DNA of 64,000 nt from an uncultured Actinomycetota bacterium (lineage in GTDB: Bacteria; Actinomycetota; Humimicrobiia; Humimicrobiales; Humimicrobiaceae), in NCBI GenBank assembly GCA_964601205.1, contig CAZRML010000036.1:69985-133984 (forward strand). The letters run 5' to 3'. A model generated the notes under the pieces. It saw only the letters and a program-made list of their open reading frames with translations, was not told the DNA's origin and did no database searches. Position numbers and translations under genes: made by a program. Numbering within the stretch: the stretch's first letter is position 1; each line of letters starts with the position of its first letter. Positions 20,862-55,023 of this stretch are shown one piece after another.

Positions 20862-20867
20862 ACTAAA

Positions 20868-35163: not shown

Positions 35164-36339
35164 TTATTTACTTTTATAAACCACTTTGCCTTTTACCAGG
35201 GTTTCATCAACTTCAAAGTTTTCATTTAATATGACTATATCGGCATCTTTACCCGGTTCAAGACTCCCTTTTCTATTCTCAACTCCCAGTCTTCTCGCAG
35301 GATTTATAGTTGCCATTCTGATAGCATCCACCAATGATATACCTGCTATATCCACCATATTTCTCACAGCTCTATCCGGGGTTAGAATGCTTCCCGCCAG
35401 TGTACCATCCGCCAGTCTAGCTTCACCATTCTTAACTGAAACCTCCTGTCCGCCAAGTTCATATGAACCATCTGGCATACCTGCTGCCCTCATAGCATCT
35501 GTGATAAGAATTATTTTTTCCATCTCTTTAACCTTAGTTACCATCTTCATGGCTAAAGGATGCAAATGTATCCCGTCAGAAATCATTTCCACTATTATTT
35601 CCGGAGAAAATAGTGCTGCTCCTACAATACCGGGTTCCCTATGTGCAAATCCCGTCATAGCATTGAATATGTGAGTAACATGACTTATACCCGCTTTAAC
35701 ACCTTCGCGTGCCTGCTCATAAGTGGCATTGGAATGTCCAATTGAGATGATAATGCCATGCTTATGTAACCATTGTATAAGGTCAAGTGCGCCGGGCATC
35801 TCAGGTGCCACAGTAGTTATACGAATAATATTTCCTGAAGCTTCATTAAATTCAATAAATTCATCTATGGAAGCATTTCTTATATCCTCCTCTTTCTGAG
35901 CACCTTTCCTTATTGGATTTATATAGGGACCTTCAACATTTGCACCCAGAACCTCAGAATATCCTGTACCTCTAACAAATGCTTCATTAACACTTTTAAG
36001 GCTTTTTAAAATCCTATCCTTACTCATGGTCATAGTAGTAGGGAGAAAAGCTGTGGTGCCAAATCTGGAATGTGCCCTGGATATTTCTTTTATCGCATCG
36101 TAATTTCCATCCATTGTATCAAAACCGCCGCCGCCATGTACATGTATATCAATAAAACCCGGGACAATAAAACCATCAGTAACATTGATAACTTCTGAAT
36201 TTGAAGTCCCGGCTATATTTTTTTTATCTTCCACTGAAACAATTTTCCCATCCTCTATAACTACAGCTCTGTCTTTTACCAATTCAAAAGGAGTTATCAG
36301 TGTACCGGTTAAAATTATACTTTTTTTATTACTATCCAT
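35164..36339 (-). CDS. nagA: N-acetylglucosamine-6-phosphate deacetylase
   Basis: IDIHVHGGGG metal-binding motif. Amidohydrolase fold. Confidence 0.85.
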   Translation of the reverse strand: MDSNKKSIILTGTLITPFELVKDRAVVIEDGKIVSVEDKKNIAGTSNSEVINVTDGFIVPGFIDIHVHGGGGFDTMDGNYDAIKEISRAHSRFGTTAFLPTTMTMSKDRILKSLKSVNEAFVRGTGYSEVLGANVEGPYINPIRKGAQKEEDIRNASIDEFIEFNEASGNIIRITTVAPEMPGALDLIQWLHKHGIIISIGHSNATYEQAREGVKAGISHVTHIFNAMTGFAHREPGIVGAALFSPEIIVEMISDGIHLHPLAMKMVTKVKEMEKIILITDAMRAAGMPDGSYELGGQEVSVKNGEARLADGTLAGSILTPDRAVRNMVDIAGISLVDAIRMATINPARRLGVENRKGSLEPGKDADIVILNENFEVDETLVKGKVVYKSK

Positions 36340-36389
36340 TTAATTAATTTCCTTTCTAATTTTTACCTAAATTATAAAATCCAGCTTAC

Positions 36390-37781
36390 CTACTTATCTT
36401 TTTCTATTAATGGAAGGCTGGCAGCAGCAATAGATTGGCCTACTCTTCTGCTGGATTCATCGGGAAGGCTTAAAGTAATTTTACTATAAAGTTCAGGAAA
36501 TTCTTTTCTTAGAACTTCTTCGGCGTTTTGTAATATTATCTGACCACCCTGCCCTGAAGTAACTCTTCCAAGAATAAGAACATTTTCTATATCATAAAAA
36601 TTTTCATAATAAGCAATGCTGTAACCGAGGTAACAACCAATTGTCTCAAAAATTTTTCCGGCTGACTCATCGCCCTTTTCTACCATACTCTGAATAGACT
36701 TTAGTTTCTCTGCAGGTGTTTTTTTATCATCAAGAGTAATTCCCGCTTTTTCAGCGAGTCTTATCACTGCTACCTGTGAAAAATATTGTACCCCGCATCC
36801 ACAGTCACCGGACCATTCATCCAGAGGTGCATCGGAATTCATATCAACAGGTATGAAAGCCAGTTCATTTAGCCAGTTGTTAATATTTCCTTTTTTATTT
36901 ATATATCCTCCCGCTTCGCTGGATCCCATGGCTATACCTAAAACTCCATTTCTTTTCAGGGACATGGAACCGGCCAGAGCAGTAACCTCACCATCGTTTA
37001 TTACTTTAAGAGGAACTCCCCACTTTTTTTGAATATCTAAAAAGATATTTTTAACTTTTTTGTCAAAAAGCTCTCTGGGTATACCTCTGAATATTGAACC
37101 GTTCATTACTCTGTTATTTATATATATTCCAGCAGAGCTTCCCCCTATGGCATCAACACGGGGCATATGAGCTGCGGCATGGTGTAACATGGACATTATT
37201 TCATGATAATGATAAGAGGGATCGGTCTTAGTACCCGGATTCCAGACAACTTCCTCGCTGAAAATTGCCTTCCCATCTATAACAGCGCTTACTTTTCTGT
37301 CACTTGCACCAAGGTCAAAACCAATACGGCATCCTTCAAGATTTCCTCCCAGCGATATAGATTCTTCCCCGGCAGAAGGGATTTCATCAATATTCATATT
37401 AACCACTTGAAAAGGTTTCTCATATATGCCGGACATAAACCCGGCATCAAAAGCACGTTCACCTCTTCTGGAATATATTCTTTTTATACGATTACCAATT
37501 GTATTTGACCCACCAATTATTACTTTATGCCCACCATAAATCCAGAGAAGTGTCTTTATTAACCGCTCAATATATTGATAATTAAAGGAAGAAAATACAG
37601 AATCATCCGAAAAAACACGGGTTTTATATACCAGCCGACATTCATTTCCTTTTTCAATACCTATTGATAAAGGAGCATCATAGTTAGAATTCCTGACGCT
37701 TTCAATAAAAGCCCTTTGCCATAAAATAGCAGGCTGAAATTTATCATCAAGGGGAGGATTACACTTCATTCTGGTCTCCAA
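36390..37781 (-). CDS. putative sugar kinase (ASKHA/ROK-like fold) with ~150-aa N-terminal domain of unknown function
   Basis: C-terminal two-thirds shows a GFDLGASDRK phosphate-1-like motif and Gly-rich segments (GIAMGSSEAGG). Has a partial ROK-like Cys motif (GDCGCG). Sits between nagA and the ROK regulator. Confidence 0.45.
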   Translation of the reverse strand: METRMKCNPPLDDKFQPAILWQRAFIESVRNSNYDAPLSIGIEKGNECRLVYKTRVFSDDSVFSSFNYQYIERLIKTLLWIYGGHKVIIGGSNTIGNRIKRIYSRRGERAFDAGFMSGIYEKPFQVVNMNIDEIPSAGEESISLGGNLEGCRIGFDLGASDRKVSAVIDGKAIFSEEVVWNPGTKTDPSYHYHEIMSMLHHAAAHMPRVDAIGGSSAGIYINNRVMNGSIFRGIPRELFDKKVKNIFLDIQKKWGVPLKVINDGEVTALAGSMSLKRNGVLGIAMGSSEAGGYINKKGNINNWLNELAFIPVDMNSDAPLDEWSGDCGCGVQYFSQVAVIRLAEKAGITLDDKKTPAEKLKSIQSMVEKGDESAGKIFETIGCYLGYSIAYYENFYDIENVLILGRVTSGQGGQIILQNAEEVLRKEFPELYSKITLSLPDESSRRVGQSIAAASLPLIEKDK

Positions 37782-37837
37782 TAGTTTTTTTCTATATTAG
37801 TATTACTCATTTACCCCCATGTAAAATATTTATAATT

Positions 37838-39052
37838 TCATGAAGAAACAGAAAAATAAAATATTTCTTTTAGAGGAATAGCCGCAGAAGCAATTATCCT
37901 GAAATCCTTCCCCAGGGAAATAGAGCATATTTCTAACTTATCTGTTAAAATCTCAAGGGCTTTTTTAAACACTATCTTTTTTACTTCAGAAATAAGAAAA
38001 AAGTTATTGTATGCAATCTTTCCACCCAGTATTATTACATCAGGATTTAATATGTTAACGAGATTAATAATTCCTATTGCAAGATATCCAGCAGTCTCAA
38101 CTGTAATTTCCTTTGCAAGCTTATCATTTCTATCCAGTGCTTCACGATAAATATAAGGGGTAACCCTGGCTATATCACCTTTTGCCAGCTCAATCATAAT
38201 GGTGTCTTTCCCATTTTCTACAGAAGTAAGTATCCTGGAATAAACAGCAGGCCAGTTTATATAATTTTCAAGACAGCCCCTGTTTCCGCAATCACACTTC
38301 ACTCCATTTTTATCTATAGTAGTATGACCAAATTCACCTGTTCCACCACTACTACCACGAACTATGTGGCCATTTACTATAATACCTGCCCCTACACCAT
38401 CGCCAATCGTAATATATATTAAATTCTCCAGATCTTTATATGCTCCAAATCTCTTCTCTGCCAGTACAATAGCATTTGTATCATTTTCCAACCAGACTTT
38501 AAGTTTAAATTTTTTCTCAATTATTTCTTTTAATGGGATGTTTTTTAATTTCAGTTTTGTATTTTCATAAATTACAGCTTTGTCCACACTTATAATTCCG
38601 GGAGAGGTAACAGAAATTCCAATACACCTCCTTAAATCATTCCTGGAATATGTATTCAAGAATTTATTAATAGATTCTAAAAGATACCCAATAAATTTTT
38701 CTCCCGTTAATTTATTTACCTGATAAATTTCCTCTCTCTTAATTCCCGCCTCTAAATTTGTTTCAGCTATTTTTACATAGGAGTTTGTAGTTGCAACTGC
38801 AATAATGAATTTACTATCAGAAGAGAACCTTAATAGTATGGGTTTTCTACCGCCGCTTGACTTTCCCACACCTTCTTCATAAACAAGCCCCTGCTTTATT
38901 AACTTTTTAACTGCCGCTGTTACAGTTGTGGAGCTTATTTTATTTTTTTTGGCTATTTCGCTACGTGAAATTGGACCATTGTTTTGAATGGTCTTAAGAA
39001 TTATTGACCTGTTTAATTCCTGGATTAATTTTAAATCGCCGGTTCTTTGCAT
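37838..39052 (-). CDS. ROK-family transcriptional repressor (NagC/XylR-like)
   Basis: N-terminal winged helix-turn-helix ([30 protein letters not shown]). ROK domain with [10 protein letters not shown] zinc motif. Confidence 0.85.
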
Positions 39053-39065
39053 TTTAATTTTAATT

Positions 39066-39158
39066 AATATTATTACCCTAAGATACTTACTTTCTCCAGT
39101 GACTTTATTAAGTTACTCCATAATATATTAACCTCAGTTTATTGTCAATAGAATTTTA
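39066..39158 (-). promoter_or_regulatory. conserved ~93-bp promoter/operator element, copy A
   Basis: About 93% identical to 55024-55116. On the minus strand it carries TTGACA-N17-TATTAT. Downstream lies the imperfect dyad AGTAACTTAATAAAGTCACT. Confidence 0.6.
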
Positions 39159-39371
39159 CATTCCTTTACTGACATACATCCATAATAATAATATTATCCT
39201 ACCATATTAAATAATTTAATTCTTTCATGCAATAGATAAATATAATATAGTTTTTAACAGTAAATTATAATATTTACAACTCTTATCACACTTAAAAACT
39301 AAGTAGAAAGGTGCCAGGTAAAACATAAAAATAATATCCTTCCGACAATTACAAACTCCCTCAAAAATTTC

Positions 39372-40790
39372 CTATCTTACATCAAAAATCTTACCTGGAT
39401 TCATGATACCATTGGGGTCAAAAGCTTTCTTAATTCTTCTCATTAAATCTATTTCCGCCGGGCTGCATACAATCCCCATAAAATCTTTCCTTTTAGAGCC
39501 AATACCATGCTCGCCGCTTAAAGTCCCCCCGAGCTTTTTTGTCGCCTGATACAGCTCTTTTAAAGCTTCTGCCTCAAGAGCATACCATTCTTCCATTGTG
39601 CTTTCTGGATTTTTAACCAGCGTTGCATGCAGGTTTCCATCACCAGCATGGCCGTAACATGGAATTTTTATACCATACTTTTTAGAAATCCCGTCCAGCT
39701 CTAACATTAAGTCAGGAATTACTGATATCGGCACTACTATATCTTCCAGACTCTGATGAGGACTAAAAACCATAAAAGCTTCTGCAATATTACGCCTAAC
39801 ACTCCATATTCTTTCCTGGGTTGTATAGTTGTCTGCCCAGTATACCTCCAGGGCGCCTTCTTTTATGCACATCTCTCCAACTGTTTCAGCATCCTGAGAA
39901 ACTATATCTTCCCTGTTTCCATCAACCTCTATTATTAACATAGCCCCTGCGCTCTTATAGGGAAGCTTTTCATTTAAATACTGGCATGACGCCTGAACAG
40001 AGATCTTGTCCATAAATTCTATTGAGGTAGGAACAATCTTTGCTTTGGTCATAATTATGGGAACCATCTCAATGGCAGATTTAACATCTTTAAATAATAC
40101 AAGTAAGTCAATTTTTGCCGTGGGAAGTGGAATCAATTTTATTATTACCCTGGTAACAATACCTAAAGTACCTTCTGAACCTATTATGAGCTGTTTTATA
40201 TCATAGCCTGTTACATCTTTTAGAAGTTTGCCTCCAAGACTGACTATCTCACCTTCCGGAGTAACCAGTTCCAGCCCCATAATGTAGCGGCCTGTGACCC
40301 CGTACTTGACAGCCCTTCCACCCCCGGCATTCTCAGCCACGTTACCACCAATAAAACAGGTTTCTACGCTCATAGGATAACCGGCATAAAATAAACCTTT
40401 TTCAGAAATAATTTCATTTACTTCATTAGTTATTACCCCCGGCTCCAGTGTCATCATCATATTGTTGTAATCTATTTCTAAGATACGGTTCATCTTTTCA
40501 AAAGATATTACAATCCCGCCAAATACTGGGATAGCACCACCGGAAAGACCACTTCCGGCCCCACGGGGAGTAACCGGTATTAATCTACTGTTTGCCAGTT
40601 TTAGAATACTGGCTATCTCTTCTGCAGAGCCAGGGGTCACTACAACTTCCGGCATATGACCATATTGCTCTGAGGGTGTTTCATCATGTGAGTAAGCTTC
40701 TATCTTTTCCCTGCCGGTTAAAACATTTTTACTGCCGACAATTTCAGCTAATTTATTTAAAATTTCCTCTGTTACCAGATTATATTTCAT
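39372..40790 (-). CDS. FAD-linked 2-hydroxyacid (lactate/glycolate) dehydrogenase, GlcD/LctD-like
   Basis: FAD_binding_4 (PCMH) domain plus FAD-oxidase C-terminal domain. Immediately downstream of etfBA. Confidence 0.8.
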   Translation of the reverse strand: MKYNLVTEEILNKLAEIVGSKNVLTGREKIEAYSHDETPSEQYGHMPEVVVTPGSAEEIASILKLANSRLIPVTPRGAGSGLSGGAIPVFGGIVISFEKMNRILEIDYNNMMMTLEPGVITNEVNEIISEKGLFYAGYPMSVETCFIGGNVAENAGGGRAVKYGVTGRYIMGLELVTPEGEIVSLGGKLLKDVTGYDIKQLIIGSEGTLGIVTRVIIKLIPLPTAKIDLLVLFKDVKSAIEMVPIIMTKAKIVPTSIEFMDKISVQASCQYLNEKLPYKSAGAMLIIEVDGNREDIVSQDAETVGEMCIKEGALEVYWADNYTTQERIWSVRRNIAEAFMVFSPHQSLEDIVVPISVIPDLMLELDGISKKYGIKIPCYGHAGDGNLHATLVKNPESTMEEWYALEAEALKELYQATKKLGGTLSGEHGIGSKRKDFMGIVCSPAEIDLMRRIKKAFDPNGIMNPGKIFDVR

Positions 40791-41791
40791 CTTGACCGGC
40801 CCCTTTTTTTAAGTCTTTCTTTAATCAAAGGTACGACCTCAAAAAGATCTGCTACTATTCCAAAGTCTGATATCTTAAAAATCTGTGCGTCAGGGTCGCT
40901 GTTAATTGCTATAATAGTATCTGATGTCTTTATGCCGGCTAAATGCTGGATAGAGCCCGAAATGCCTATGGCTATATATAATTTTGGAGATACTGTTTTG
41001 CCGCTTAAGCCAACCTGATGGGGATAGGATATCCAGCCCCTATCAACCGCGTCCCTTGATGCGCCTATTGAGCCGCCCAGGTTTTTAGCCAGGTCATAAA
41101 TAAGGCTAAAATTTTCTTTTTTCTTCAGTCCCTTTCCACCGGATACCACAATATCCGCATCCTGAATATTTTCTGCTTCATCTTCAGTTTTTCTAAATTT
41201 TATTCTTTCTACTCTTCCATCAATTAACCCGGGCTTTAGCTTAATTTTAATAATTTTACCTTTTCTACTGCTGTCCAGGGGAGCCGGCCTGGTTGACTTC
41301 ATCCTGACTGTAGCCATCTGTGGCTTGCTTTGAGGAGTTTTAATTGTTGCCAGGATGTTACCTCCAATAGCAGGTCTTGTCTGAAGAAGATTGCCAGTAT
41401 CTTTTTCAATATCAAGCTCGGTACAATCAGCAGTAAGTCCGGTTTCAAGTCTTACGGCAACATGGGGCATTAAAGTTCTGCCACCTGTTGTAGCACCGGC
41501 TATTACAATTTCCGGTTTATATCCTTTAATCAAATCCACCAGGACATTGCTATAGTTTTCTACAATAAAGTAATTTAACCTGGGATCATCTACCAGATAA
41601 ACCTTATCGGCCCCTCTATATATGAGCTCGCTTAATTTATCATCACTTATATCATGGCCCAGAAGCACTGACGCCAGCTCTACTCCTAAACTGTTAGCCA
41701 GCTTCCTACCACGGGTTAAAATCTCATAAGATACTTCCCTTATTTTCCCATCACTCTGTTCGGCTATAGTCCAGACACTGTTAGAACTCAC
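40787..41791 (-). CDS. etfA: electron transfer flavoprotein alpha subunit
   Basis: ETF alpha N-terminal domain and C-terminal FAD-binding domain. Overlaps the downstream dehydrogenase start by 4 nt. Confidence 0.85.
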   Translation of the reverse strand: MSSNSVWTIAEQSDGKIREVSYEILTRGRKLANSLGVELASVLLGHDISDDKLSELIYRGADKVYLVDDPRLNYFIVENYSNVLVDLIKGYKPEIVIAGATTGGRTLMPHVAVRLETGLTADCTELDIEKDTGNLLQTRPAIGGNILATIKTPQSKPQMATVRMKSTRPAPLDSSRKGKIIKIKLKPGLIDGRVERIKFRKTEDEAENIQDADIVVSGGKGLKKKENFSLIYDLAKNLGGSIGASRDAVDRGWISYPHQVGLSGKTVSPKLYIAIGISGSIQHLAGIKTSDTIIAINSDPDAQIFKISDFGIVADLFEVVPLIKERLKKRGRSR

Positions 41792-41804
41792 CTGTCATAT
41801 CTCC

Positions 41805-42602
41805 TTAAATTAATTTTTCTTTTTGAATAAAATCTACCAGTCTGTCAACAGCTTCTGAGAGCTCCTCTTCGTCAGCCGGCCTTAAAACTGTACCGCCTCT
41901 TGCTACCTTAGGATGGCTTATCCTAACTACACGGGTAGGAGAACCTTTTAGTCCTAGCTTTTCCTTATCAAGCTTTAAATCATCTGCTGACCATATCGGT
42001 ATTTCTGTCTTTTTAGCCTTCTTCTTTCCCCTTAGTGTAGGAAGCCTCGGATAACTTATTTCTTTTACCACAGTAAGAAGGCAGGGAAGTGGTAACTTTA
42101 GAGTTTCATATCCATCCTCAACCAGCCGCTCCACTATTATCTTTTTACCGGAAATTTCTACAATTTTACTTACATAAGTTGCAATAGGAATATCAAGTAA
42201 CGAACCTATGCCGGGACCTACCTGCCCGGTATCACCATCAGTGGCGCGCTCTCCGGCTAAAATCAAATCATAATTTCCTATCTTCTGTATCGATTTAGAC
42301 AGGGTAAAAGATGTGGCCCAGGTATCAGAACCTTTAAATTCTTTTCCTGCCAGAAGTATTCCTTCATCACAACCCATGGAGATTGCTTCTTTTAAAGCCT
42401 TTTCCGCACCCGGGGGACCCATTGAAATTACTACTATTTTCCCGCCATATTTTTCCTTTAACTGTATGCCAACTTCAATGGCATACAGGTCAAGGGGGTT
42501 GACTATGCTTTCTACCCCTTCCCTTATCATAGTGCCTGTGGCCTCATCCATTTTTACATTCCCTGTTTCGGGAACCTGTTTTATGAGGATGATAATTTGC
42601 AA
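41805..42602 (-). CDS. etfB: electron transfer flavoprotein beta subunit
   Basis: ETF beta fold. Conserved N-terminal MQIIILIKQVP motif. Confidence 0.85.
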   Translation of the reverse strand: MQIIILIKQVPETGNVKMDEATGTMIREGVESIVNPLDLYAIEVGIQLKEKYGGKIVVISMGPPGAEKALKEAISMGCDEGILLAGKEFKGSDTWATSFTLSKSIQKIGNYDLILAGERATDGDTGQVGPGIGSLLDIPIATYVSKIVEISGKKIIVERLVEDGYETLKLPLPCLLTVVKEISYPRLPTLRGKKKAKKTEIPIWSADDLKLDKEKLGLKGSPTRVVRISHPKVARGGTVLRPADEEELSEAVDRLVDFIQKEKLI

Positions 42603-42788
42603 TTTATTCTCCTATGCTTGTAACAATCATAGATTTAATATTCTTTTCTAGTTTCATACTATATATAACTATTGAATTATTCGTATTTTTAATTCCCACA
42701 ATTATCTTCTATGCTACATTTTCAATAAAGAGCTTTCAGTAATAAAACCTAAACAAAATAATTATCACCTTATAAACTTCATTAAAAA

Positions 42789-44588: not shown

Positions 44589-44705
44589 TCCTTTTATTTT
44601 TTCTCTATTATTTACAGTAGATCTTAAAATAATTATTCAACGATTTAGTTTTTCAATAATCGCTCTTTCATATGGAAATATCTATTTTACTTCTTTAACT
44701 CAGGA

Positions 44706-46094: not shown

Positions 46095-46126
46095 TTTTTA
46101 CTAATTGGATAACCCATATTAAAAAT

Positions 46127-46148
46127 TTAACAATAAAGTTATTGTTGA
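46127..46148. promoter_or_regulatory. near-perfect palindrome TTAACAATAA-AG-TTATTGTTGA upstream of M20 gene
   Basis: Arms match 9/10 (core 8-bp arms perfect) with a 2-bp spacer. Lies 33-54 bp upstream of the amidohydrolase start. Confidence 0.35.
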
Positions 46149-46311
46149 TTTACAAAAAAACAATAGTTATTCTAAGATAATCATTCCACATTAAATTTAT
46201 TCCTCTTCAAAAATTATATTCTGAAAAAATGTTAAAGACCCGAAATTAATTAGAGCAATTTCCGGTATACCTTTTGCAATTTAATTTCCTATATTAACCA
46301 ACAAAAAAATG

Positions 46312-47508
46312 CTATTTCTTTATAAAACTATTATCTTTTATCTTTTTTATCAGTTCAGGAATAATTTCATAAAGGTCACCCACCATGCCTATATCAGCAG
46401 TATCAAAAATTGGTGCAGAAGGATCATTATTTATTGCGACTATAAAATCCGATCTTCCCATTCCAGCAAGATGCTGCGCCGACCCGGATATCCCACATGC
46501 TATATAAATCCTGGGCCTGACCGTTTTTCCACTTAACCCCACCTGATGGGGATAGCTTATCCACCCTTTATCAACCGCTACTCTGCTTGCTCCAACCACT
46601 CCACCCAGTGTTTCAGCCAGCTCATTAATAAGTCTAAACCCTTTCTCATTGCCCAGGCCATTACCCCCTGAACAAATAACTTCAGCTTCAATGATATTTA
46701 GATTCTCCTCTATTTTTTCCATCTTCTTTACTTCAACTCTGTCCCGGATTTTTTCTTTATCAAATTTCATATTTACTACTTCACCTTTATATCCGGGAAT
46801 CTTTTCAGCTGGTTTCATAATTTTATATCTAACCGTAGCCATCTGGGGTCTGTTATTGGTACAGATTATGGTTGCCATAATATTCCCGCCAAAAGCGGGT
46901 CTAGTTTGCAGTAAATTTTTGTCTTTCTTATTAATCTCTAATCCCGTACAATCAGCTGTAAGGCCTGTTTCGATACTTGATGAAATTCTTGGTGCGATTG
47001 ACCTTCCAATAGCTGTCCCTCCTATCAGGAAGATGTTTGGTTTAATTTTATTTACAAAGTCAATTAAAATATTAGAATAAGGATCATCTCTGAAATTTTC
47101 CAGGCATTCGTCGTCATAAACAAATACTTTATCTACTCCATAGCTTATTAAATCTTCTGCCTTTTCTGTTACGCCCTTCCCCAGAAGCACGCAGTATAGC
47201 TTCTCACCAGTTTCTTTTGCCAGTTCTCTACCCTTTCCTATTAACTCATAGACCACAGGGGAAACCATACCATCTTTATACTCTCCAAAAATTAGTACCC
47301 CTTTATATCCGGACAGGTCAGCCTTTTTCTTTTCTTTTAATAGTTCAATAGCACCATAAGGACATTCTGAAACACATGCACCGCATAGCTTGCAATCTTC
47401 AGATATTACTGCCAGGCTGTCAATTATTGATATTGCATTAAAAGGACAGGCCTTAATACAAAGACCACAACCTGTACATTTTTCTTTAATAACCCTTATT
47501 TTTTTCAT
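46312..47508 (-). CDS. ferredoxin-fused electron transfer flavoprotein alpha subunit (2x[4Fe-4S] + EtfA)
   Basis: N-terminal CTGCGLCIKACP and CKLCGACVSECP motifs. Followed by complete ETF alpha domains. Confidence 0.85.
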   Translation of the reverse strand: MKKIRVIKEKCTGCGLCIKACPFNAISIIDSLAVISEDCKLCGACVSECPYGAIELLKEKKKADLSGYKGVLIFGEYKDGMVSPVVYELIGKGRELAKETGEKLYCVLLGKGVTEKAEDLISYGVDKVFVYDDECLENFRDDPYSNILIDFVNKIKPNIFLIGGTAIGRSIAPRISSSIETGLTADCTGLEINKKDKNLLQTRPAFGGNIMATIICTNNRPQMATVRYKIMKPAEKIPGYKGEVVNMKFDKEKIRDRVEVKKMEKIEENLNIIEAEVICSGGNGLGNEKGFRLINELAETLGGVVGASRVAVDKGWISYPHQVGLSGKTVRPRIYIACGISGSAQHLAGMGRSDFIVAINNDPSAPIFDTADIGMVGDLYEIIPELIKKIKDNSFIKK

Positions 47509-47518
47509 TAAGAACTCC

Positions 47519-48313
47519 TCATAAAATCTTCTTTTCTTTTAACTTTTCAATTAAAATTTTAGCCTGATATTCTGGCTTTCCTTTTATTATTTCACCTTTA
47601 CCACGGGCCGGAGGAGGAAATATTTTTACAACTTCTGTGGGAGAGCCTTCTGTACCATATCTCTTTTCTTTACCTCCTAAATCTTTTAAGTTCCATGTTG
47701 ATATTGGAGTTTCTTTTGCCATTTTCTGTCTTTTAAAAGATGGGTACCTTGGTTCATTTGCTTCCTTGGTAACTGTAACTACAACCGGTAATTTAGACTC
47801 CACTATTTCGTAATAATCATCTAAAACTCTCTCCAGAGATATCGATCTTTCTTTTAGATCTATAATTTTTCTAACATAACCTATAAACGGAATACCCAGC
47901 TCTTCAGCCAGGCTGGGACCAACCTGTCCGGTATCACCATCAGTGGTCTTCAAACCACACATTATGATATCATAACTACCTATTTTTTTTATACCAGATG
48001 CCAGGGTATAGGCTGTTGCCCAGGTATCAGCGCCGGCAAATTTTTTATCGGTTAGCAAAATAGCATTATTACAACCCATAGCTATAGCTTCTCTTAAAGC
48101 GGCATCGGCCTGAGGGGGCCCCATGCTGATAACATCTACTTCGCCACCGTATTTCTCTTTTAATCTGATAGCTTCTTCAATTGCATACATATCAAATGGA
48201 TTGACCTCAGACAGAACACCCTCACGGATCAGAGTCCCTTTTTCCTGATCCATCATCACATCTGTTTGTGCAGGTACCTGCTTTATACATACTATTATTT
48301 TTAATTTATCCAA
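47519..48313 (-). CDS. electron transfer flavoprotein beta subunit (second copy)
   Basis: ETF beta fold. Paired with the ferredoxin-fused EtfA. Confidence 0.85.
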   Translation of the reverse strand: MDKLKIIVCIKQVPAQTDVMMDQEKGTLIREGVLSEVNPFDMYAIEEAIRLKEKYGGEVDVISMGPPQADAALREAIAMGCNNAILLTDKKFAGADTWATAYTLASGIKKIGSYDIIMCGLKTTDGDTGQVGPSLAEELGIPFIGYVRKIIDLKERSISLERVLDDYYEIVESKLPVVVTVTKEANEPRYPSFKRQKMAKETPISTWNLKDLGGKEKRYGTEGSPTEVVKIFPPPARGKGEIIKGKPEYQAKILIEKLKEKKIL

Positions 48314-48350
48314 TTAAATCCCCCGTTTACTTTAAAAGTTGATTACTTTT

Positions 48351-49220
48351 TTAACCTTTCACTGCTCCTTCAACAAGACCCCGGATAATTACTTTCTGGA
48401 ACAGTAATGCTAATATTACCACGGGAATACTTGAAATTACCCCCGTAGCTAAAATTTTTGTCACTTCCATATTCTCCATATTACTTAGAACACCGACATA
48501 CACTGTAAATGGTGTAGATTTTGTTTTAGTCAGTATCAGACCTATTAAAAAATTAGACCATGCTATGATAAAAGTGTAAACAGACACAGCTCCGATTCCA
48601 GGCAATGCAACAGGTATAATTATTCTTAATAATGCTTTAAATCTTGTACAACCATCAACCAGGGCAGCTTCTTCTAAAGCATCTGGTATAGTATCATAAA
48701 ATGACTTCATTACCCATATTGAAAAAGGTAAGGTATACGCAGTTAATACAATTACCAGCCCCCATATAGTGTCATAAAGGCTCAGATTTACAAACTGAAG
48801 ATATAACGGGATCAGAATTGCCATCGTTGGAACCATTGATGCAAATAGAAAAAGAAGTAATATCATATTTCTGCCCCTCATCTTGCTCCTGGATAGAGGG
48901 TAAGCCGCAAGGCATGCACTCACAGTTGCAATTATTGTAGTGGGAATAGCTATTTTTAGACTGTTAATAAATGTAGCAACTGCTCTTTTAGATGAAACCA
49001 TTACATATCTGTAATTTTCAAAAAGTTCTGTTATTGTATTCCATTCGTTGGGAAATAAATGAAAGTTTGGATAATGATTTAAATATAACTCATGTTCACT
49101 CATTAAAGAACTAAAAATCATAATTATGACCGGAAACATAATTACAATAACCGAAGAATAAAGTAAAAAATAAAAAAATGCTCTAAGAAGATTCTCTTTT
49201 GTTTTTGGTTTTATAGACAT
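48351..49220 (-). CDS. ABC sugar transporter permease (MalG-like, CUT1)
   Basis: Six TM helices with an EAA loop (LEEAALVDGCTRF). Confidence 0.8.
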   Translation of the reverse strand: MSIKPKTKENLLRAFFYFLLYSSVIVIMFPVIIMIFSSLMSEHELYLNHYPNFHLFPNEWNTITELFENYRYVMVSSKRAVATFINSLKIAIPTTIIATVSACLAAYPLSRSKMRGRNMILLLFLFASMVPTMAILIPLYLQFVNLSLYDTIWGLVIVLTAYTLPFSIWVMKSFYDTIPDALEEAALVDGCTRFKALLRIIIPVALPGIGAVSVYTFIIAWSNFLIGLILTKTKSTPFTVYVGVLSNMENMEVTKILATGVISSIPVVILALLFQKVIIRGLVEGAVKG

Positions 49221-49256
49221 ATAAATATTTTCTAATTATTTTTATTATTAATTATA

Positions 49257-50171
49257 TTAGTACCTTACTTCCCTGTAAGTTATTCTATAGTAGAATACTG
49301 ATATTATAATTATTAACAATGATACAAAAAACGCTATCGCTGCTCCAAGCCCGAACTTCATAAAAGTAAATGAATAAAGATATGAAATATAATTAAGTAC
49401 AGAAGTAAAATTACCCGGCCCACCTCTGGTTAGTATATAAATCAAATCAAATGCCTTAAAAGTTTCTACAGATAGTAAAATAAATACAATTACCATAGAC
49501 GGCCTGACCAGTGGTAAGGTAATTGAAAAAAACCTTCCTACAGGAGACATTCCATCTACACCTGCTGCCTCATATAATTCTTTTGGAATAGTTTTTAGTG
49601 ATGCTGAAAGTAGGAACACGGTAATTGGCAAAATTTTATATACAGTCGTTAACACAATCATAATAAAAGCAGGCCATTGTTCAGATTGCCATTCTCTAAA
49701 ATTATTTAGTAATCCCATAGCTATCAATATATTATTAAAAGTACCAAGCCTGGGGCTAAATATCCATTTCCACATAAGCCCTACTACAACAGGAGGAAGT
49801 GCCCATGGTATTAAAAGAAGAGCCATTATTAAGTTGGAACCTCTTAAATCCATATTTAATAATACAGCCAGGAAAAGACCAAAAACTATTGCCAGGGCAG
49901 TAACAACCAGTGCAAAAAGTACTGTTATCCAGACTGAGTGGGCTATGTCAGGTATTTTAAATATGTTTATATAATTTTCAATTCCAATAAACTTCGGTGT
50001 CTTACCCAGTCTCCAATCAAACAAACTCATAACAAATGAATAGATAACAGGGAACACCATAACAAATAATATAAATACTATAGCGGGCAACATCATATTT
50101 AAATTAAAACTGTTTCTTCTTAAGGATAGCGGAATCTCTTTTTTTCTATTATTTAAATACATATTTACCAT
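49257..50171 (-). CDS. ABC sugar transporter permease (MalF-like, CUT1)
   Basis: Six TM helices. EAA-like loop (YEAAGVDGMSPV). Confidence 0.8.
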   Translation of the reverse strand: MVNMYLNNRKKEIPLSLRRNSFNLNMMLPAIVFILFVMVFPVIYSFVMSLFDWRLGKTPKFIGIENYINIFKIPDIAHSVWITVLFALVVTALAIVFGLFLAVLLNMDLRGSNLIMALLLIPWALPPVVVGLMWKWIFSPRLGTFNNILIAMGLLNNFREWQSEQWPAFIMIVLTTVYKILPITVFLLSASLKTIPKELYEAAGVDGMSPVGRFFSITLPLVRPSMVIVFILLSVETFKAFDLIYILTRGGPGNFTSVLNYISYLYSFTFMKFGLGAAIAFFVSLLIIIISVFYYRITYREVRY

Positions 50172-50234
50172 ATAATACTATCTAATAACAAAAAAGGAAG
50201 GCAGGTGAAAAATCACCTGCCTTTTAACCATTTA

Positions 50235-51647
50235 TTATTCCAAATATGATTCCCACGTTGAATAGAATAAATCCTCAAGCTGGTTGAGTGTTTCTTCTTC
50301 ATCAATTTTATTACTAAAGTAGTTTTCAAAAATCGGTATACTTCCATTCTCTATTTCACTCATATTTGGTTCTACATATCTTACCGACCTGCTGGCCATA
50401 TCCAATGAAATCGGTATATAGGGGTACTCGGTAACATATTCCTCATCATTTGCAAGTGCTAATCTTACCGGGCAGAACCCATCATGCTCGTTTCTCCACT
50501 TCTGTATTGGAATAGATGAATAGAACAGGCAAAAAGCTAACGCATTATCCAGGTTTTCAGCACCATCTCTAATTACATACCCCATATCACCTGTAACACA
50601 ATAGCTTTCATTATCTCCATCTACAGGTACTTCGGCCCAACCTATCTTATCCGAATTTTCCGGGAAGTTATTTAAAATATCAGCATAAACCCATCCCATA
50701 TAATTCCAGGATAGACCTACACCGCCTGCTGAAAATGAAGACCTTGACTGTCCAGGGTCACCGGCTGCCATAACGGGATCAGAAAAATCACTGGCATAAA
50801 GTGCTTTTTCTACCTGCAGAGCTCTTATACCGTATTCATCATTAAACAATGCTTCGGGGTTACTTGGATCCTCGTTCCAGTATTCGCCGCCCACATTCTT
50901 TAATAATGCATAAAATACAGGATTCCAGCTCTGACCGGGTTGTGACACTCCTGTAAAACCATAAGTTTCAGGTAACCCGTCATTATCTTCATCTACGGTA
51001 CAATCCGCTGCACACTGGAGAAAATCATTAATCTGTTTTGGTGGTGTATCATAACCTGCTTTTGATAGTATTTCCGTATTATACTGGATACCCCATATTC
51101 CAACAAAGAAAGGAACACCAAACCACTTGTCCCCGGAGCCAACAGCCTTGTGAATGCCCGGTACTATATCATCTTTTAATTCCTGTGGAATCATATCGGT
51201 TACATCCATTAGATAATCCTTAAACTGGTTTGTCCATGCCCCCCAGCTCCACATAAGATCAAAATCTGCAGTTCCGGTTTCGAGTTCCATAGCTATTTTT
51301 GATGCATACTCTGCATATGGAATCGCTACCCAATTAACTTCTACTTCAGGATACGCATCTAAAAACATCGATGTAACGCTTTCTTCCAGAGCCATTTCAT
51401 CTTTATAAGAATAAATATTTAACTGTCCGGATGGTTTAAGCCCTGCTTTCTCAATCCAGTAAGTTGCAGTTTCCACCGCTTCTTCTACTTCTTCAGCTTC
51501 TTCTGCTACTTCCTCTGCTTCTTCTGCTACTTCTTCTGCTACTTCCTCAGCTTTTGCGCAACCCATTGGTAAAATAGCCATTGAAATTGTAAAAACTACA
51601 ATAGCTACCCATGCAATTGACTTAACTTTAGAAATCATCTTACACAA
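50235..51647 (-). CDS. ABC transporter extracellular solute-binding lipoprotein (family 1) with acidic AEEV repeat linker
   Basis: Signal peptide with lipobox (MGC). Low-complexity AEEVAEEVAEEAEEV tether. SBP_bac_1 fold. Confidence 0.8.
   Translation of the reverse strand: MCKMISKVKSIAWVAIVVFTISMAILPMGCAKAEEVAEEVAEEAEEVAEEAEEVEEAVETATYWIEKAGLKPSGQLNIYSYKDEMALEESVTSMFLDAYPEVEVNWVAIPYAEYASKIAMELETGTADFDLMWSWGAWTNQFKDYLMDVTDMIPQELKDDIVPGIHKAVGSGDKWFGVPFFVGIWGIQYNTEILSKAGYDTPPKQINDFLQCAADCTVDEDNDGLPETYGFTGVSQPGQSWNPVFYALLKNVGGEYWNEDPSNPEALFNDEYGIRALQVEKALYASDFSDPVMAAGDPGQSRSSFSAGGVGLSWNYMGWVYADILNNFPENSDKIGWAEVPVDGDNESYCVTGDMGYVIRDGAENLDNALAFCLFYSSIPIQKWRNEHDGFCPVRLALANDEEYVTEYPYIPISLDMASRSVRYVEPNMSEIENGSIPIFENYFSNKIDEEETLNQLEDLFYSTWESYLE
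51476..51552. repeat. in-frame tandem repeat (12-nt GCTTCTTCTGCTAC-type units) encoding (A/E)EEV acidic linker of the SBP
   Basis: Directly visible repeated gcttcttctgctacttc units. Encodes the low-complexity linker after the lipobox. Confidence 0.7.
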
Positions 51648-51851
51648 TCTCCTTTCACACTTTAAAATAGTGCTGAGTCTTCAATCTGATAATCTTTTTT
51701 ACTATAATTATCACCTCCTAATATCTCTAAAAAGATTTATAAAATTTTTCACCTCCTGCTTTATTTTTTTTTATCCAAATTACATACAAAATAACTTTTT
51801 AATATCCATCAATTCGTTAGAGCTTTTACAAATAATTAATACAAATATATT

Positions 51852-53048
51852 TTAATAACCATTGAAATCGTAAATACAGCAAGAATCTTTTACCAGCTCA
51901 GCTATATCTCTTACCTCTATATCATAACCCCTGCTATCCATAGCCCCCTTTAGCATTTGCAGACATAGAGGACAGGCCACTGCAACTACGTCAACGTCTA
52001 ATTCCTTGATCTGGTCTGCCCTGGCCAGATCCATTTTTACATTGGGAAGATCCATCCATAGAACAGGCCCTCCACCTCCGCAGCAATATGAATTTCCTCT
52101 TGACAGCTCAAGTTCAACCAGTTCAACTCCTGGAATGCTTTTCAATATTTCCCTGGGTTCCTCATAAATATTATTACGTCTCCCCAGATAACATGAATCA
52201 TGGTATGTAATTTTTTTATTTATCTTCTTACCAATTTTAATTATTTTTGAATTTATTAGTTCCCAGAGTACCTGGGTATAATGTTTAACCTCTATATTTT
52301 CCAGACCTTCATAATAGTTTAAGAAAATGTCATAATCGTGAGGAGAAAAGCAAATTATCTTCTTAATTTTATACTTTTTAAAAATCTCCAGATTATGTTC
52401 AACCATTTCTTCATATATTCCTTCATCTCCCAGCATCATAGCCTGGGAACCGCTATCCATTTCCTGGCTACCAAGCATGCGAAATTTTACTCCTGCTCTT
52501 TTCAAAATATCTATTACAGCTTCTGCAGCAACTCTTGCATCTTCATCATAGGGGACAAACGACCCAACATATAGAAGAGTTTCAGCTTCTTCATCCTTAA
52601 TACCCATCTTATTAACCCAGTCATCTTTAACTTTTGGCAGACCACCATAAGGATTTCCGAACTTCATGATATTGCTCAGGACATCCCTTATTCTTGGATC
52701 AATGTTTCCGTTTTCTACTTTCATTGCCCTCAAAATTTCTGTAGTAGTTGCTCCGCTTACAACGTTCTTCCGGGTTTTTTTGGTAAGAAATACATTTTCA
52801 CCACAATACCATTCACATGCTCTACAGCCACTGCAGGCATAAAGTATTTCGTCAGGTATGTCAGAAATATTATATTCACCCTTTAATACTCCGAGCGCTA
52901 CCTGCGCAATGCCTCTTGGTGAAACAGACCCGATTTGTAACTGATTGTATGCCGGGCAATCCTTATTGCACAATCCGCAAGAGCAGCTCAAACAATTCTC
53001 TAGCGCTTTACCATAATCCTTTAACGTAACTATATTGTGTTTATCCAT
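51852..53048 (-). CDS. Fe-S oxidoreductase, GlcF/HdrD-like (2x[4Fe-4S] ferredoxin + two CCG domains)
   Basis: CLSCSCGLCNKDCP and CSGCRACEWYC cluster motifs. C-terminal CCG domains (SYCCGGGG, CPLC). Confidence 0.8.
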   Translation of the reverse strand: MDKHNIVTLKDYGKALENCLSCSCGLCNKDCPAYNQLQIGSVSPRGIAQVALGVLKGEYNISDIPDEILYACSGCRACEWYCGENVFLTKKTRKNVVSGATTTEILRAMKVENGNIDPRIRDVLSNIMKFGNPYGGLPKVKDDWVNKMGIKDEEAETLLYVGSFVPYDEDARVAAEAVIDILKRAGVKFRMLGSQEMDSGSQAMMLGDEGIYEEMVEHNLEIFKKYKIKKIICFSPHDYDIFLNYYEGLENIEVKHYTQVLWELINSKIIKIGKKINKKITYHDSCYLGRRNNIYEEPREILKSIPGVELVELELSRGNSYCCGGGGPVLWMDLPNVKMDLARADQIKELDVDVVAVACPLCLQMLKGAMDSRGYDIEVRDIAELVKDSCCIYDFNGY

Positions 53049-53061
53049 AACCTAAAACTCC

Positions 53062-54585
53062 TTAAAATATTATTTTTGGATTCATTATGTTTTTTGGATC
53101 AATTGACTTTTTTATTTTCTTCATCAATTTATAAGCATTTTTACCCATATTCCTTTCCATAATCTCTACTTCCAGATCCCTTGGTATCCACGCATGGGTA
53201 GTAGCTATTGCTCCATCACACTCAAATATTAATTCAACATATTTTTTATACCAATCAAGAAATTCCCCCCTGAACTTCTTATTCATATTTTTTCTATAAA
53301 CATGTATTGTAGCCCAGGTTTTATTAAAGCCTAAAACTCCTGGTAAAACTCTTCCAATATCTCTGGCAATTGTGCAATTTGCTAGATTAGGATATATCTC
53401 TTTATTTTCCATGTCATAGCAATGTTTCCTAAATTTAGCATGCCATTCTATGAGTCTGCTATCAGGAATGTTTGGATCTAAAAATATTGGCTTAGCAGAA
53501 TAACCATCTGCATTAATATGCTTGCTGAATACATCCGTAGCGATACCTAAACTTACATTTACCTTCTTATAAAGCCCTTTCCATTCTCTTGAATGTGCAT
53601 CCCACCAATTAGTAATTTCTGTCACTTCCGGGGCACAAAATCCATTATGTTTTTTTATAATATCCTCAGCAATATTCTTCATGCCATCAACTTCATACTG
53701 TAAACCATAAATAGAATAATGGACCACCATAGCTATTTCTTTCGGCCAGGGTTTCCCAATAGTTTGTTCGGAATATGATTCTTCATCTACTGAACACGAA
53801 ACCCTCCATAAATTATTTGAATATTTGCTCCTTTTTAATTCTAAATAAGCTTCTAGCCCTTCTTTAAAAGTTCCAAAGGCAGCTTCCCCATAGTGCTCTG
53901 CCGGAGGATAGTCTGTGAATCTTTCAGTTACTTTGGTAATAATACCCAATGTTCCTCTTGAACCAATAAACAAATTCATTAAATCCCATCCTGTCGATGA
54001 TTTTGTAGGTTTATTCGATCCCCTTCCTACATCAATTACGCTTCCATCAGGTAATACCACTTCAATTTTATAAATATTATTACCAGCAGGACCCCATCTA
54101 TTTTCCCAATAACCATATCCATTAACTGCAGGGCGAGAACCCAGGGTACATATTTCTTCTGATCCGGGGTAATCTGTGGGCATATACCCCCTCTTTATTA
54201 AATAACTAATCAGCTCCATCATATTTACCCCTGCTTCTCCAGTGATTCTATAGTCCTCCTCATTCAGCTCCAGAATTTTATTCATTTTTTTTGTTTCAAT
54301 AACTATGCCTCCGCGCATGCCTTCTGCACCATAAGTCCCAGATCTACCCCCTGAAGGGACTAATGGGATCCCATTTTTATCCGCAAATTTAACTATTTTT
54401 TGTACGTCTTCAGTACTAGTGGGAGTAACTACTGCATCAGGTAAAAATATTTCTAGATAATCTTCATGTAACAAACACTCAGGTCCATGTGTAACCGTAT
54501 AGCACATCCTGGTAGGCTTATCAGTAAATACATTCAAATCTCCTATAGCTTTCCTAAGCTCACTTATTTCCTTTTCTGAAACCAT
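53062..54585 (-). CDS. FAD-linked oxidase, GlcD/AGPS-like
   Basis: PCMH-type FAD-binding domain. Extended C-terminal substrate domain. AGGAAGGAGAG Shine-Dalgarno. Paired with the CCG Fe-S protein. Confidence 0.75.
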   Translation of the reverse strand: MVSEKEISELRKAIGDLNVFTDKPTRMCYTVTHGPECLLHEDYLEIFLPDAVVTPTSTEDVQKIVKFADKNGIPLVPSGGRSGTYGAEGMRGGIVIETKKMNKILELNEEDYRITGEAGVNMMELISYLIKRGYMPTDYPGSEEICTLGSRPAVNGYGYWENRWGPAGNNIYKIEVVLPDGSVIDVGRGSNKPTKSSTGWDLMNLFIGSRGTLGIITKVTERFTDYPPAEHYGEAAFGTFKEGLEAYLELKRSKYSNNLWRVSCSVDEESYSEQTIGKPWPKEIAMVVHYSIYGLQYEVDGMKNIAEDIIKKHNGFCAPEVTEITNWWDAHSREWKGLYKKVNVSLGIATDVFSKHINADGYSAKPIFLDPNIPDSRLIEWHAKFRKHCYDMENKEIYPNLANCTIARDIGRVLPGVLGFNKTWATIHVYRKNMNKKFRGEFLDWYKKYVELIFECDGAIATTHAWIPRDLEVEIMERNMGKNAYKLMKKIKKSIDPKNIMNPKIIF

Positions 54586-55017: not shown

Positions 55018-55023
55018 AAATTT

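Follow-up and report, generated by a model that had tools for sequence, protein, structure and literature searches.

The window analysed here is a stretch of 64,000 nucleotides (positions 69,985 to 133,984 of contig CAZRML010000036.1) from an uncultured actinomycetotal bacterium of the Humimicrobiaceae. It contains an island of predicted amino-sugar genes interspersed with genes for electron-transferring flavoproteins (Etf). In our preferred reading, whose chances we judge to be about even, an accessory cassette extends a nag operon to a lactyl-ether amino sugar of the N-acetylmuramic acid (MurNAc) type and passes its D-lactate to a complex of the Ldh-EtfAB type. The substrate would most likely be MurNAc or MurNAc-L-Ala from peptidoglycan debris. 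The locus combines known pathways with two uncharacterised protein families, as judged from the sequences: a GKRP-like family of ~590 amino acids (aa) and a four-subunit flavin/iron-sulfur/Etf oxidoreductase. An earlier annotation made from the DNA letters (the sequence-only reading) had called the joining of an etherase to Etf proteins in one operon undescribed. Literature searches found no description of such a locus and nothing to contradict this view.

The island consists of 15 open reading frames (ORFs), arranged head-to-tail on the minus strand and running from 54585 down to 35164. The gene inventory of the sequence-only reading largely holds, but it had counted three GlcD-like dehydrogenases, placed the importer first and put the repressor in the middle. 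The window has just two GlcD-like genes (53062-54585 and 39372-40790); a phmmer search over all six-frame ORFs of the window yielded no third. The run opens with the GlcD-like/CCG pair, and the ROK repressor gene is the third from its end. Profile searches of these ORFs against Pfam and NCBIfam gave the following protein calls.

53062-54585, minus strand: GlcD-like507, FAD_binding_4 flavoprotein of the VAO/GlcD fold, distinct clade
51852-53048, minus strand: CCG398, Fer4_8 and CCG (Pfam), soluble 2x[4Fe-4S] protein, HdrD/TfrB/GlcF-like
50235-51647, minus strand: SBP470, SBP_bac_1 and SBP_bac_8 (Pfam), CUT1-type solute-binding protein (SBP) with an acidic repeat linker
49257-50171, minus strand: Perm304, BPD_transp_1 (Pfam) and NCBIfam match, UgpA/MalF-like permease of an ATP-binding cassette (ABC) system
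48351-49220, minus strand: Perm289, BPD_transp_1 (Pfam) and NCBIfam match, MalG/UgpE-like ABC permease
47519-48313, minus strand: EtfB264, ETF (Pfam), bifurcating-type Etf beta, partner of the GlcD-like/CCG module
46312-47508, minus strand: FdEtfA398, two Fer4, ETF and ETF_alpha (Pfam), EtfA with an N-terminal 2x[4Fe-4S] ferredoxin domain
44706-46094, minus strand: M20_462, TIGR01891, M20D N-acyl-L-amino-acid amidohydrolase
42789-44588, minus strand: GKRP599, GKRP_SIS_N and GKRP-like_C (Pfam), MurQ-related SIS1-SIS2-lid protein, putative lactyl-ether etherase
41805-42602, minus strand: EtfB265, bifurcating-type Etf beta, LctB-like
40787-41791, minus strand: EtfA334, ETF and ETF_alpha (Pfam), no ferredoxin domain, LctC-like core
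39372-40790, minus strand: LctD472, predicted Etf-linked D-lactate (D-2-hydroxyacid) dehydrogenase, match to 7QH2_C
37838-39052, minus strand: ROKreg404, ROK and HTH_24/MarR (Pfam), NagC/Mlc-type ROK repressor with a winged helix-turn-helix domain
36390-37781, minus strand: ROKlike463, weak ROK match (Pfam), divergent ROK/ASKHA sugar kinase, probable N-acetylhexosamine kinase
35164-36339, minus strand: NagA391, TIGR00221, N-acetylglucosamine-6-phosphate (GlcNAc-6P) deacetylase

The steps of the proposed pathway are all inferred from sequence and gene context. The CUT1 ABC system would take up the amino sugar and the ROK-like kinase ROKlike463 would convert it to the 6-phosphate. GKRP599 would then cleave the D-lactyl ether to yield GlcNAc-6P, which NagA391 would deacetylate. 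M20_462 may free L-alanine; its substrate would be MurNAc-L-Ala if it acts ahead of ether cleavage and D-lactyl-L-Ala if it acts later. Oxidation of D-lactate to pyruvate would fall to EtfB265, EtfA334 and LctD472, forming a complex of the Ldh-EtfAB type that is probably electron-confurcating. GlcD-like507, CCG398, EtfB264 and FdEtfA398 would make up a separate four-subunit flavin/iron-sulfur/Etf oxidoreductase. Import of a MurNAc-type sugar, removal of its lactate and Etf-coupled oxidation had also been proposed in the sequence-only reading. This proposal finds partial support in the LctD module, NagA and the MurQ relative; it does not extend to the GlcD-like module.

The lactate module closely resembles a complex of known structure. 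LctD472 matches Acetobacterium woodii LctD (7QH2_C) over its full length (E 2.4e-106). Of the lactate-site residues listed for the A. woodii enzyme (PMC9232219), the alignment to 7QH2_C shows Arg328, Asp346, the metal ligands His377, His384 and Glu422 and the catalytic His423 to be kept. The gene order EtfB-EtfA-Ldh is likewise that of A. woodii LctBCD, so the similarity to this complex noticed earlier holds. We take the sequence DGDT(A/G)QVGP in EtfB to be diagnostic of the bifurcating type, and EtfB265 carries DGDTGQVGP, aligned with the bifurcating Etfs. Among solved structures, EtfB265 scored 198-228 bits with CarD, 7KOE_A, 5OL2_B, LctB and 4KPU_B, compared with 64-93 bits for non-bifurcating Etfs. 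EtfA334, which is 50% identical to FdEtfA398, also matches the bifurcating set (CarDE, LctBC, 5OL2, 4KPU, 7KOE) much better than the non-bifurcating proteins. Unlike the A. woodii complex, the module sits inside an amino-sugar locus, and the island lacks the LctA regulator. Among the Pfam and NCBIfam gene calls of the island there is also no lactate permease and no racemase, which fits a source of D-lactate within the cell.

The candidate for this source is GKRP599, which is homologous to MurQ. Two stretches of GKRP599, residues 22-255 and 509-570, align with MurQ 4S12 and correspond to a SIS domain and the C-terminal helical lid. Residues 256-508 gave no Pfam match (GKRP_SIS_2, PF22198, was not recognised), and it is only the predicted fold that supports a second SIS domain here. 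In the AlphaFold2 (AF2) model, the predicted template modelling score (pTM) is 0.81 and the mean predicted local distance difference test score (pLDDT) is 73, with values <50 at residues 342-372 and 412-428. The best full-length Foldseek matches of the model are the vertebrate GKRPs 3W0L and 4BB9 (E ~1e-12, TM-score 0.54-0.56, ~600 columns), followed by MurQ and then by double-SIS isomerases, with GlmS and AgaS among the matches. The model thus supports a double-SIS/GKRP architecture. GKRP599 has the order SIS1-SIS2-lid, the long helix after GxGxSGR and the E-x-x-ED motif in common with the GKRP family. Its identity to GKRPs is only ~14-18%, and in sequence it is nearer to MurQ. Unlike GKRPs, it is a bacterial protein encoded in a catabolic operon, it has no GKRP_SIS_2 match, and no role in glucokinase regulation is expected.

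GKRP599 keeps the motifs E-x-x-ED, GSTRMQ, KL.LN..ST and TNKKL.DR. In E. coli MurQ, Hadi et al. in 2008 reportedly placed the catalytic Glu83 in the segment DASECPPTFG and the catalytic Glu114 in EGAED. Canonical MurQs from the loci compared here have GAGTSGRLGVLDA[SA]ECPPTFG and EGAED in 20/20 cases. Members of the ~590-aa family instead have GCG[AS]TGRL..LLE..W..FW (16/16) and E[GN][FY]ED (all but one). The latter motif aligns to the EGAED of MurQ, and E151, E154 and D155 are invariant across the family. The segment bearing Glu83 is replaced by the long helix after GxGxSGR, which human GKRP has ungapped, and an invariant glutamate of the family, Glu107, lies two residues upstream of the Glu83 position. 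Invariant polar residues are found in both domains (E107, E151, E154, D155, E180, E183, TDTTER 340-345, K512, N516 and R547). GKRP-architecture proteins of Naegleria and lancelet are efficient MurNAc-6P etherases (bioRxiv 10.64898/2026.05.08.723886), indicating that this architecture is compatible with MurNAc-6P etherase activity. The earlier assignment as a MurQ-like etherase is thus supported in part, by MurQ homology, the GKRP fold and the retained E-x-x-ED motif, but not by the MurQ model scores or by the DASECPPTFG segment, which is replaced.

The family of GKRP599 comprises 406 clusters at 50% identity (E<=1e-30), and most of its members belong to the PVC superphylum (Planctomycetota, Verrucomicrobiota and relatives). 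The genomes of the species collection contain no relative of GKRP599 closer than 50%. Neighbourhoods were counted in 80 loci of PVC genomes (L010-L089). At least one peptidoglycan-recycling gene adjoins the family member in 35/80 loci, and the neighbours include SSF transporters (25), AmiE-like proteins (23), AnmK (21), MurQ (19) and NamZ (16). In L007, an ORF with ankyrin repeats lies upstream of the GKRP-like gene; it was considered as a conserved partner and rejected, as it occurs in 1/80 loci only. Fusions to DUF4838/GH67N, a GlcNAc 2-epimerase, a GH2 TIM barrel, DUF6259 and an SGNH esterase were called in P0363, P0377, P0380, P0385 and P0398; these come from gene calling and may be true fusions or artefacts.

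This bacterial double-SIS MurQ/GKRP-like family matters for the question of how eukaryotic GKRP originated. In a recent preprint, GKRP is assumed to stem from two murQ copies that became fused (bioRxiv 10.64898/2026.05.08.723886). The widespread ~590-aa bacterial family already has the GKRP architecture and the long helix that follows GxGxSGR in GKRP. The family is also relevant to the search for non-MurQ lactyl etherases; one is still sought in mycobacteria (PMC13041923).

Compared with the MurQ pathways of E. coli (murQ-murP/murR) and B. subtilis (murQ-murR-murP-amiE-nagZ-namZ), the proposed pathway would have the same sequence of import, 6-phosphorylation, ether cleavage to GlcNAc-6P and D-lactate, and deacetylation by NagA. 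The homology of GKRP599 to MurQ and the occurrence of its family beside AnmK, MurQ, NamZ and AmiE-like genes in PVC genomes point in the same direction. There are also clear differences. The window has an ABC importer and a ROK-like kinase, whereas MurQ systems use the MurP phosphotransferase system. The candidate for the etherase, a double-SIS protein of 599 aa, has no DASECPP, an M20D enzyme takes the place of AmiE/AmiD-type amidases, and the locus includes its own genes for Etf-linked dehydrogenases.

M20_462 passes the TIGR01891 subfamily cut-off (242.7 bits, cut-off 153.75). Among known structures it comes closest to HmrA (3RAM) and to PM20D2, an Xaa-Arg dipeptidase; both enzymes detach an N-acyl group and so release an L-amino acid. 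A clue to the amino acid comes from the metagenomic relative L001, in which an alanine dehydrogenase gene (7371-8480) lies between Fd-EtfA and M20, directly upstream of the latter. With 400 bits for TIGR00518 (cut-off 392), the encoded protein counts as a bona fide alanine dehydrogenase. The gene is absent from the window and from the relatives L004 and L180. Since MurNAc-L-Ala and D-lactyl-L-Ala are both N-acyl-L-alanines, the L001 gene points to L-alanine as the product that M20_462 may release. The M20 protein of the L090/L094 loci (described below) was considered as an orthologue of M20_462 and rejected: it gave no BLAST match and belongs to the ArgE/DapE subfamily.

Comparison with related loci divides the island into two layers. 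ROKreg404, ROKlike463 and NagA391 are best read as an ancestral nag core with its own promoter, and the 12 genes that precede it, GlcD-like507 through LctD472, as an accessory cassette. A syntenic relative (L176/L177) has the order regulator-SBP-permease-permease-GH3-kinase-NagA between nrdR and merR-dnaK, with identities to the window of 85% for DnaK, 93% for NrdR, 83% for the regulator at the same site as ROKreg404, 75% for the kinase and 66% for NagA. None of the 12 cassette genes is present at this syntenic site, and the SBP of the GlcNAc-type operon in L176 is only 26% identical to SBP470. In a further locus, L178, the kinase and NagA pair stands with yet another upstream gene set. The absence of the cassette from L176/L177 and the different company of the pair in L178 suggest that the core is ancestral and the 12 genes accessory. 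The whole run had earlier been taken for one island; the repressor, kinase and NagA genes rather belong to an older nag core outside the acquired cassette.

A comparison of gene neighbourhoods, which the sequence-only reading had named as a check, showed that gene order is conserved. Cassette and core have the same order in the metagenomic relatives L001, L004 and L180, with protein identities of 75-96%; in L004, the sequence past LctD has no ROKreg match. Because the order recurs in these relatives, we read the arrangement as no chance juxtaposition.

The proteins of the core are assigned with differing precision. NagA391 passes the equivalog cut-off of TIGR00221 (389.6 bits, cut-off 225.65), which confirms the NagA deacetylase gene annotated earlier. 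ROKreg404 scored 225 bits with the NagC model, below the model cut-off. ROKlike463 is a weak match to Pfam ROK (29.9 bits, threshold 22.9), with one weak PDB match and no match to an NCBIfam model. It has a DLGAS phosphate loop, an NDG motif and only a partial Zn motif. Its gene lies beside NagA in L001, L176 and L178, and its homologues (65-79% identity) are mostly labelled Atribacterota; going by these labels, the window organism, taken to be an anaerobe, would probably be placed in Atribacterota. ROKlike463 is probably the N-acetylhexosamine kinase of that phylum. Its family, of ~468 aa with an N-terminal extension of ~150 aa, has no curated model and consistently adjoins NagA in Atribacterota-labelled contigs. 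The core resembles known NagC/ROK-regulated nag operons in the grouping of regulator, kinase and NagA under their own promoter, and L176 has a plain operon of the GlcNAc/chitobiose type with ABC and GH3 genes. It differs from them in the kinase, which belongs to the divergent 463-aa family, and in the promoter of the regulator, which is duplicated and would drive the cassette as well.

This duplication, a repressor remnant and one hairpin are the following features.

55019-55115, minus strand: promoter/leader repeat, copy 1, 97 nt, with TTGACA-17-TATTAT and the exact 30-mer AACTTAATAAAGTCACTGGAGAAAGTAAGT, at the cassette head
39062-39158, minus strand: promoter/leader repeat, copy 2, before ROKreg-ROKlike-NagA, conserved in L001 and L176
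54754-55017, minus strand: orf87, decayed 5' remnant of a ROK repressor gene, directly after repeat copy 1
50198-50223, minus strand: hairpin with T-run, 11-bp stem, between the SBP and permease genes; consensus match from a terminator-like scan

The two copies of the promoter/leader form a direct repeat, 90% identical over 97 nt, and the window contains the 30-mer exactly two times, where 0 occurrences are expected. The TTGACA-17-TATTAT element at 39148-39120, upstream of ROKreg404, is the best sigma-70-like match of the region (11/12); the promoter and the downstream leader are conserved in L001 and L176. In L180, the closest relative, the 30-mer is also found upstream of the GlcD-like gene, with 2 mismatches. 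The product of orf87 is similar to ROKreg404 (phmmer E 9e-6), and in the DNA alignment the likeness to the regulator gene fades after ~60 nt of coding sequence. The shared promoter/leader suggests that cassette and core are likely co-regulated. Generic promoter and terminator scans did not exceed the shuffled expectation (62 vs 77 promoters, 17 vs 12 terminators); from them, we kept only the conserved, duplicated promoter and the strong hairpin behind the SBP gene, which is likely an intra-operon attenuator.

The second redox module is of a different kind from the lactate module. GlcD-like507 has an FAD_binding_4 domain (E 2.2e-34) and a weak FAD-oxidase_C match, and it scored 138 bits with TIGR00387, not reaching the cut-off of 568. 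In an hhalign comparison of 27 family members with LctD472, His377, His384 and Glu422 are replaced and only His464 (equivalent to His423) is kept. Foldseek with the AF2 model (pLDDT 84) found mouse LDHD and alkyl-dihydroxyacetone phosphate (alkyl-DHAP) synthase about equally similar, at 22% identity and a TM-score normalised to the query (TMq) of ~0.77; for LDHD, the score normalised to the target (TMt) was 0.86. The sequence-only reading had lactate oxidised by both Etf modules. This is unlikely, since GlcD-like507 does not have the His/His/Glu metal site of D-2-hydroxyacid dehydrogenases and the module is for this reason probably no lactate dehydrogenase. Its substrate is probably something other than lactate.

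The importer genes separate the GlcD-like/CCG pair from its own EtfB/Fd-EtfA pair in the window. Contiguous GlcD-like/CCG/EtfB/Fd-EtfA genes, whose products are 59-73% identical to the window proteins, occur in L090/L091 and L094/L095 (module sites: L090 8703-13506; L094 9705-16360, with an IS110-type transposase fragment splitting EtfB and Fd-EtfA in L094/L095). The CCG gene always adjoins the GlcD-like gene in L090, L092 and L094. CCG398 has TfrB as its best NCBIfam match (E 4.5e-40, below the cut-off). EtfB264 carries DGDTGQVGP and is 70-73% identical to the EtfB proteins of the four-gene modules in L090 and L094. The best PDB matches of FdEtfA398 are CarE (6FAH, E 3.8e-120) and LctC (7QH2_A, E 1.7e-110). 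The surrounding L090/L094 cluster encodes a GlmD-like deaminase, a PfkB kinase, KbaZ-like and GFO_IDH proteins, an ABC system, an ArgE/DapE-type M20 protein, a ROK kinase and NagA, together with a PRK02947 SIS protein and a URO-D-like protein, and no MurQ relative. A contig from Desulfobacterales has a 42%-identical pair among organic-acid genes. The degenerate patterns of a metagenome scan with the GlcD-like507 family alignment proved too unspecific: only 1 of the sequences retrieved belonged to the family, the other 79 being ordinary GlcD homologues, and the scan added no context. Conserved adjacency suggests that the four proteins form one complex, and we regard the four-gene module as portable between amino-sugar clusters.

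A literature search on glycolate dehydrogenase with EtfAB found no matching four-gene module. The nearest characterised relatives are of two kinds. FdEtfA398 has CarE of the CarCDE complex (6FAH) as its best match, including the N-terminal 2x[4Fe-4S] domain, and CarD is the best match of EtfB265 among the solved structures compared with this one EtfB. In contrast to CarCDE, the dehydrogenase part in the window is a flavoprotein of the VAO/GlcD fold with an HdrD-like CCG subunit, not an acyl-CoA dehydrogenase. Dehydrogenases of the GlcD+CCG kind, such as glycolate oxidase GlcDEF, also have a GlcD-fold gene beside a gene for a Fer4+CCG subunit; DVU3027/3028 of Desulfovibrio is presumably a two-subunit D-lactate dehydrogenase of this kind. 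GlcD-like507 differs from them in lacking the metal site, in scoring far below the GlcD cut-offs and in being as near to alkyl-DHAP synthase as to LDHD. Furthermore, its closest relatives always occur with a bifurcating-type Etf that has a ferredoxin domain. This oxidoreductase recurs in amino-sugar clusters and, like the GKRP-like family, is worth direct testing.

Several observations weigh against the proposed MurNAc-type pathway. GKRP599 stays below the cut-offs of the MurQ models (NF003915, 155 of 168 bits; TIGR00274, 125 of 302; NF009222, 121 of 255), and DASECPPTFG is absent from 16/16 family members, with LLE..W..FW in its place. A canonical MurQ gene adjoins the family member in 19/80 PVC loci, and this frequent coexistence suggests a related, but not identical, substrate or role. 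Etf, LctD and M20D neighbours were found in 0/80 PVC loci, so the link between etherase and Etf is limited to one narrow lineage. For M20_462, the proposed role is drawn from a single gene beside it in a single relative. LctD472 departs from A. woodii LctD at Leu332, Glu344 and Tyr386, and its substrate could possibly be another D-2-hydroxy acid. Within the island, intergenic gaps of 117-319 nt occur. Genes for an ABC ATPase, NagB/GlmD and a muramidase were not found in the 64-kb window; the importer is represented by the SBP and the two BPD_transp_1 permeases. CUT1-type importers usually use shared MsmX/MsiK-type ATPases.

A further point of this kind concerns electron confurcation. EtfA334 begins at the Etf core and lacks an N-terminal ferredoxin domain, which the EtfA of A. 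woodii has and which is found in the window in FdEtfA398 of the other module. Truncation of the EtfA ferredoxin domain abolishes confurcation in A. woodii (PMC9232219). The domain is also absent from other bifurcating Etfs, e.g., 5OL2 and 4KPU. The bifurcating coupling suggested earlier as probable is thus in agreement with DGDTGQVGP in both EtfB proteins and with the PDB scores, but not with the domain structure of EtfA334.

With these reservations in mind, other explanations of the locus have to be weighed. The substrate may be a different N-acyl or substituted amino-sugar conjugate, with GKRP599 acting as isomerase, deglycase or binder, the M20D enzyme releasing an amino acid or acyl group, and the flavoenzyme-Etf systems oxidising acids other than lactate. 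We regard this as unlikely. Isomerases and deglycases can have SIS folds too, as the Foldseek matches GlmS and AgaS illustrate, and GKRP599 has neither a MurQ model score above cut-off nor DASECPP; in sequence, however, it is nearest to MurQ etherases and not to isomerases. Many neighbours and fusions of the family have no connection with peptidoglycan (sulfatases, GFO_IDH, rhamnosidase, GH2, GlcNAc 2-epimerase), yet the commonest neighbours are peptidoglycan-recycling genes. The GlcD-like module occurs in a cluster without a MurQ relative, and GlcD-like507 lacks the metal site of lactate dehydrogenases. LctD472, on the other hand, retains all of the residues listed for lactate binding and catalysis in A. 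woodii LctD, and D-lactate from an etherase would explain why Ldh-Etf genes lie nearby without a permease or racemase. A purely regulatory GKRP599 is highly improbable. Like vertebrate GKRP, such a protein would modulate a kinase, here the ROK-like one, with a sugar phosphate bound and without catalysis, in line with its best structural matches, with the long ungapped helix after GxGxSGR common to both and with the sugar kinase gene in the locus. The many invariant polar residues over both domains are what would be expected of an enzyme, some family members are fused to catabolic enzymes, and in most PVC loci no ROK kinase lies next to the family member. In addition, the interaction by which GKRP inhibits glucokinase arose only in jawed vertebrates, according to the preprint (bioRxiv 10.64898/2026.05.08.723886).

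The genes could also share no pathway at all, and be a mosaic of independent units (an lctBCD-like operon, an FAD/FeS/Etf oxidoreductase, an ABC importer and the nag core) brought together at a recombination-prone site. The cassette is missing from the syntenic L176/L177, the L004 sequence after LctD has no ROKreg match, and ABC genes split a four-gene module that is contiguous elsewhere. Gaps reach 319 nt, a promoter-like site precedes the regulator, and a truncated plsY beside the island suggests local rearrangement. Nevertheless, we consider a mosaic quite unlikely. Gene order is identical in L001, L004 and L180 at 75-96% identity, 15/15 genes lie on the same strand, and the promoter/leader of the regulator is duplicated at the cassette head. 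Moreover, the Ldh-Etf genes come without lactate permease or racemase, and every non-redox gene is related to amino sugars. A bolder proposal has two parts that would both have to be true: that the GlcD-like507 module, whose flavoprotein is as near to the ether-forming alkyl-DHAP synthase as to LDHD, represents an undescribed class of Etf-coupled enzymes whose target is a substituent of an amino sugar and not a free 2-hydroxy acid (e.g., through oxidative cleavage of a lactyl or other alkyl ether to pyruvate and the sugar), and that the ~590-aa family is a new etherase subfamily reaching beyond MurNAc-6P and the source of eukaryotic GKRP. We consider this combination a long shot, and oxidative cleavage of a lactyl or other ether by the GlcD-like507 module is in itself speculative.

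If the preferred reading, i.e., use of a MurNAc-type sugar with oxidation of its D-lactate by an Ldh-EtfAB-type complex, is true, an abundant subsurface lineage ties the scavenging of peptidoglycan sugars directly to flavin-based electron confurcation. It would also show how fermenters short of energy make full use of the D-lactyl group in MurNAc from necromass.

The remaining features of the region are of minor importance for these questions. Tandem repeats of 9/12 nt at 51472-51555 (minus strand) encode the acidic (A/V)EE linker behind the signal peptide of SBP470. Rfam searches found no riboswitch or leader RNA within the island and only tRNAs elsewhere in the window: a cluster of five (20521-20943) and a single tRNA (7864-7934, minus strand), unrelated to the island. 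The island is flanked by housekeeping genes, with merR-dnaK-hsp20-dnaJ-clpB on one side and genes for NrdR, a baeRF protein, a lipid A acyltransferase and a P-type ATPase on the other. At the island head, plsY is truncated (55453-55629, plus strand), upstream of nrdR (55671-56126). The remaining piece matches residues 144-202 only of the 214-aa PlsY of L180, with 91.5% identity. Relative to L180, ~480 nt are missing at this site, beside the duplicated promoter; the truncation may be a rearrangement scar or an assembly issue.

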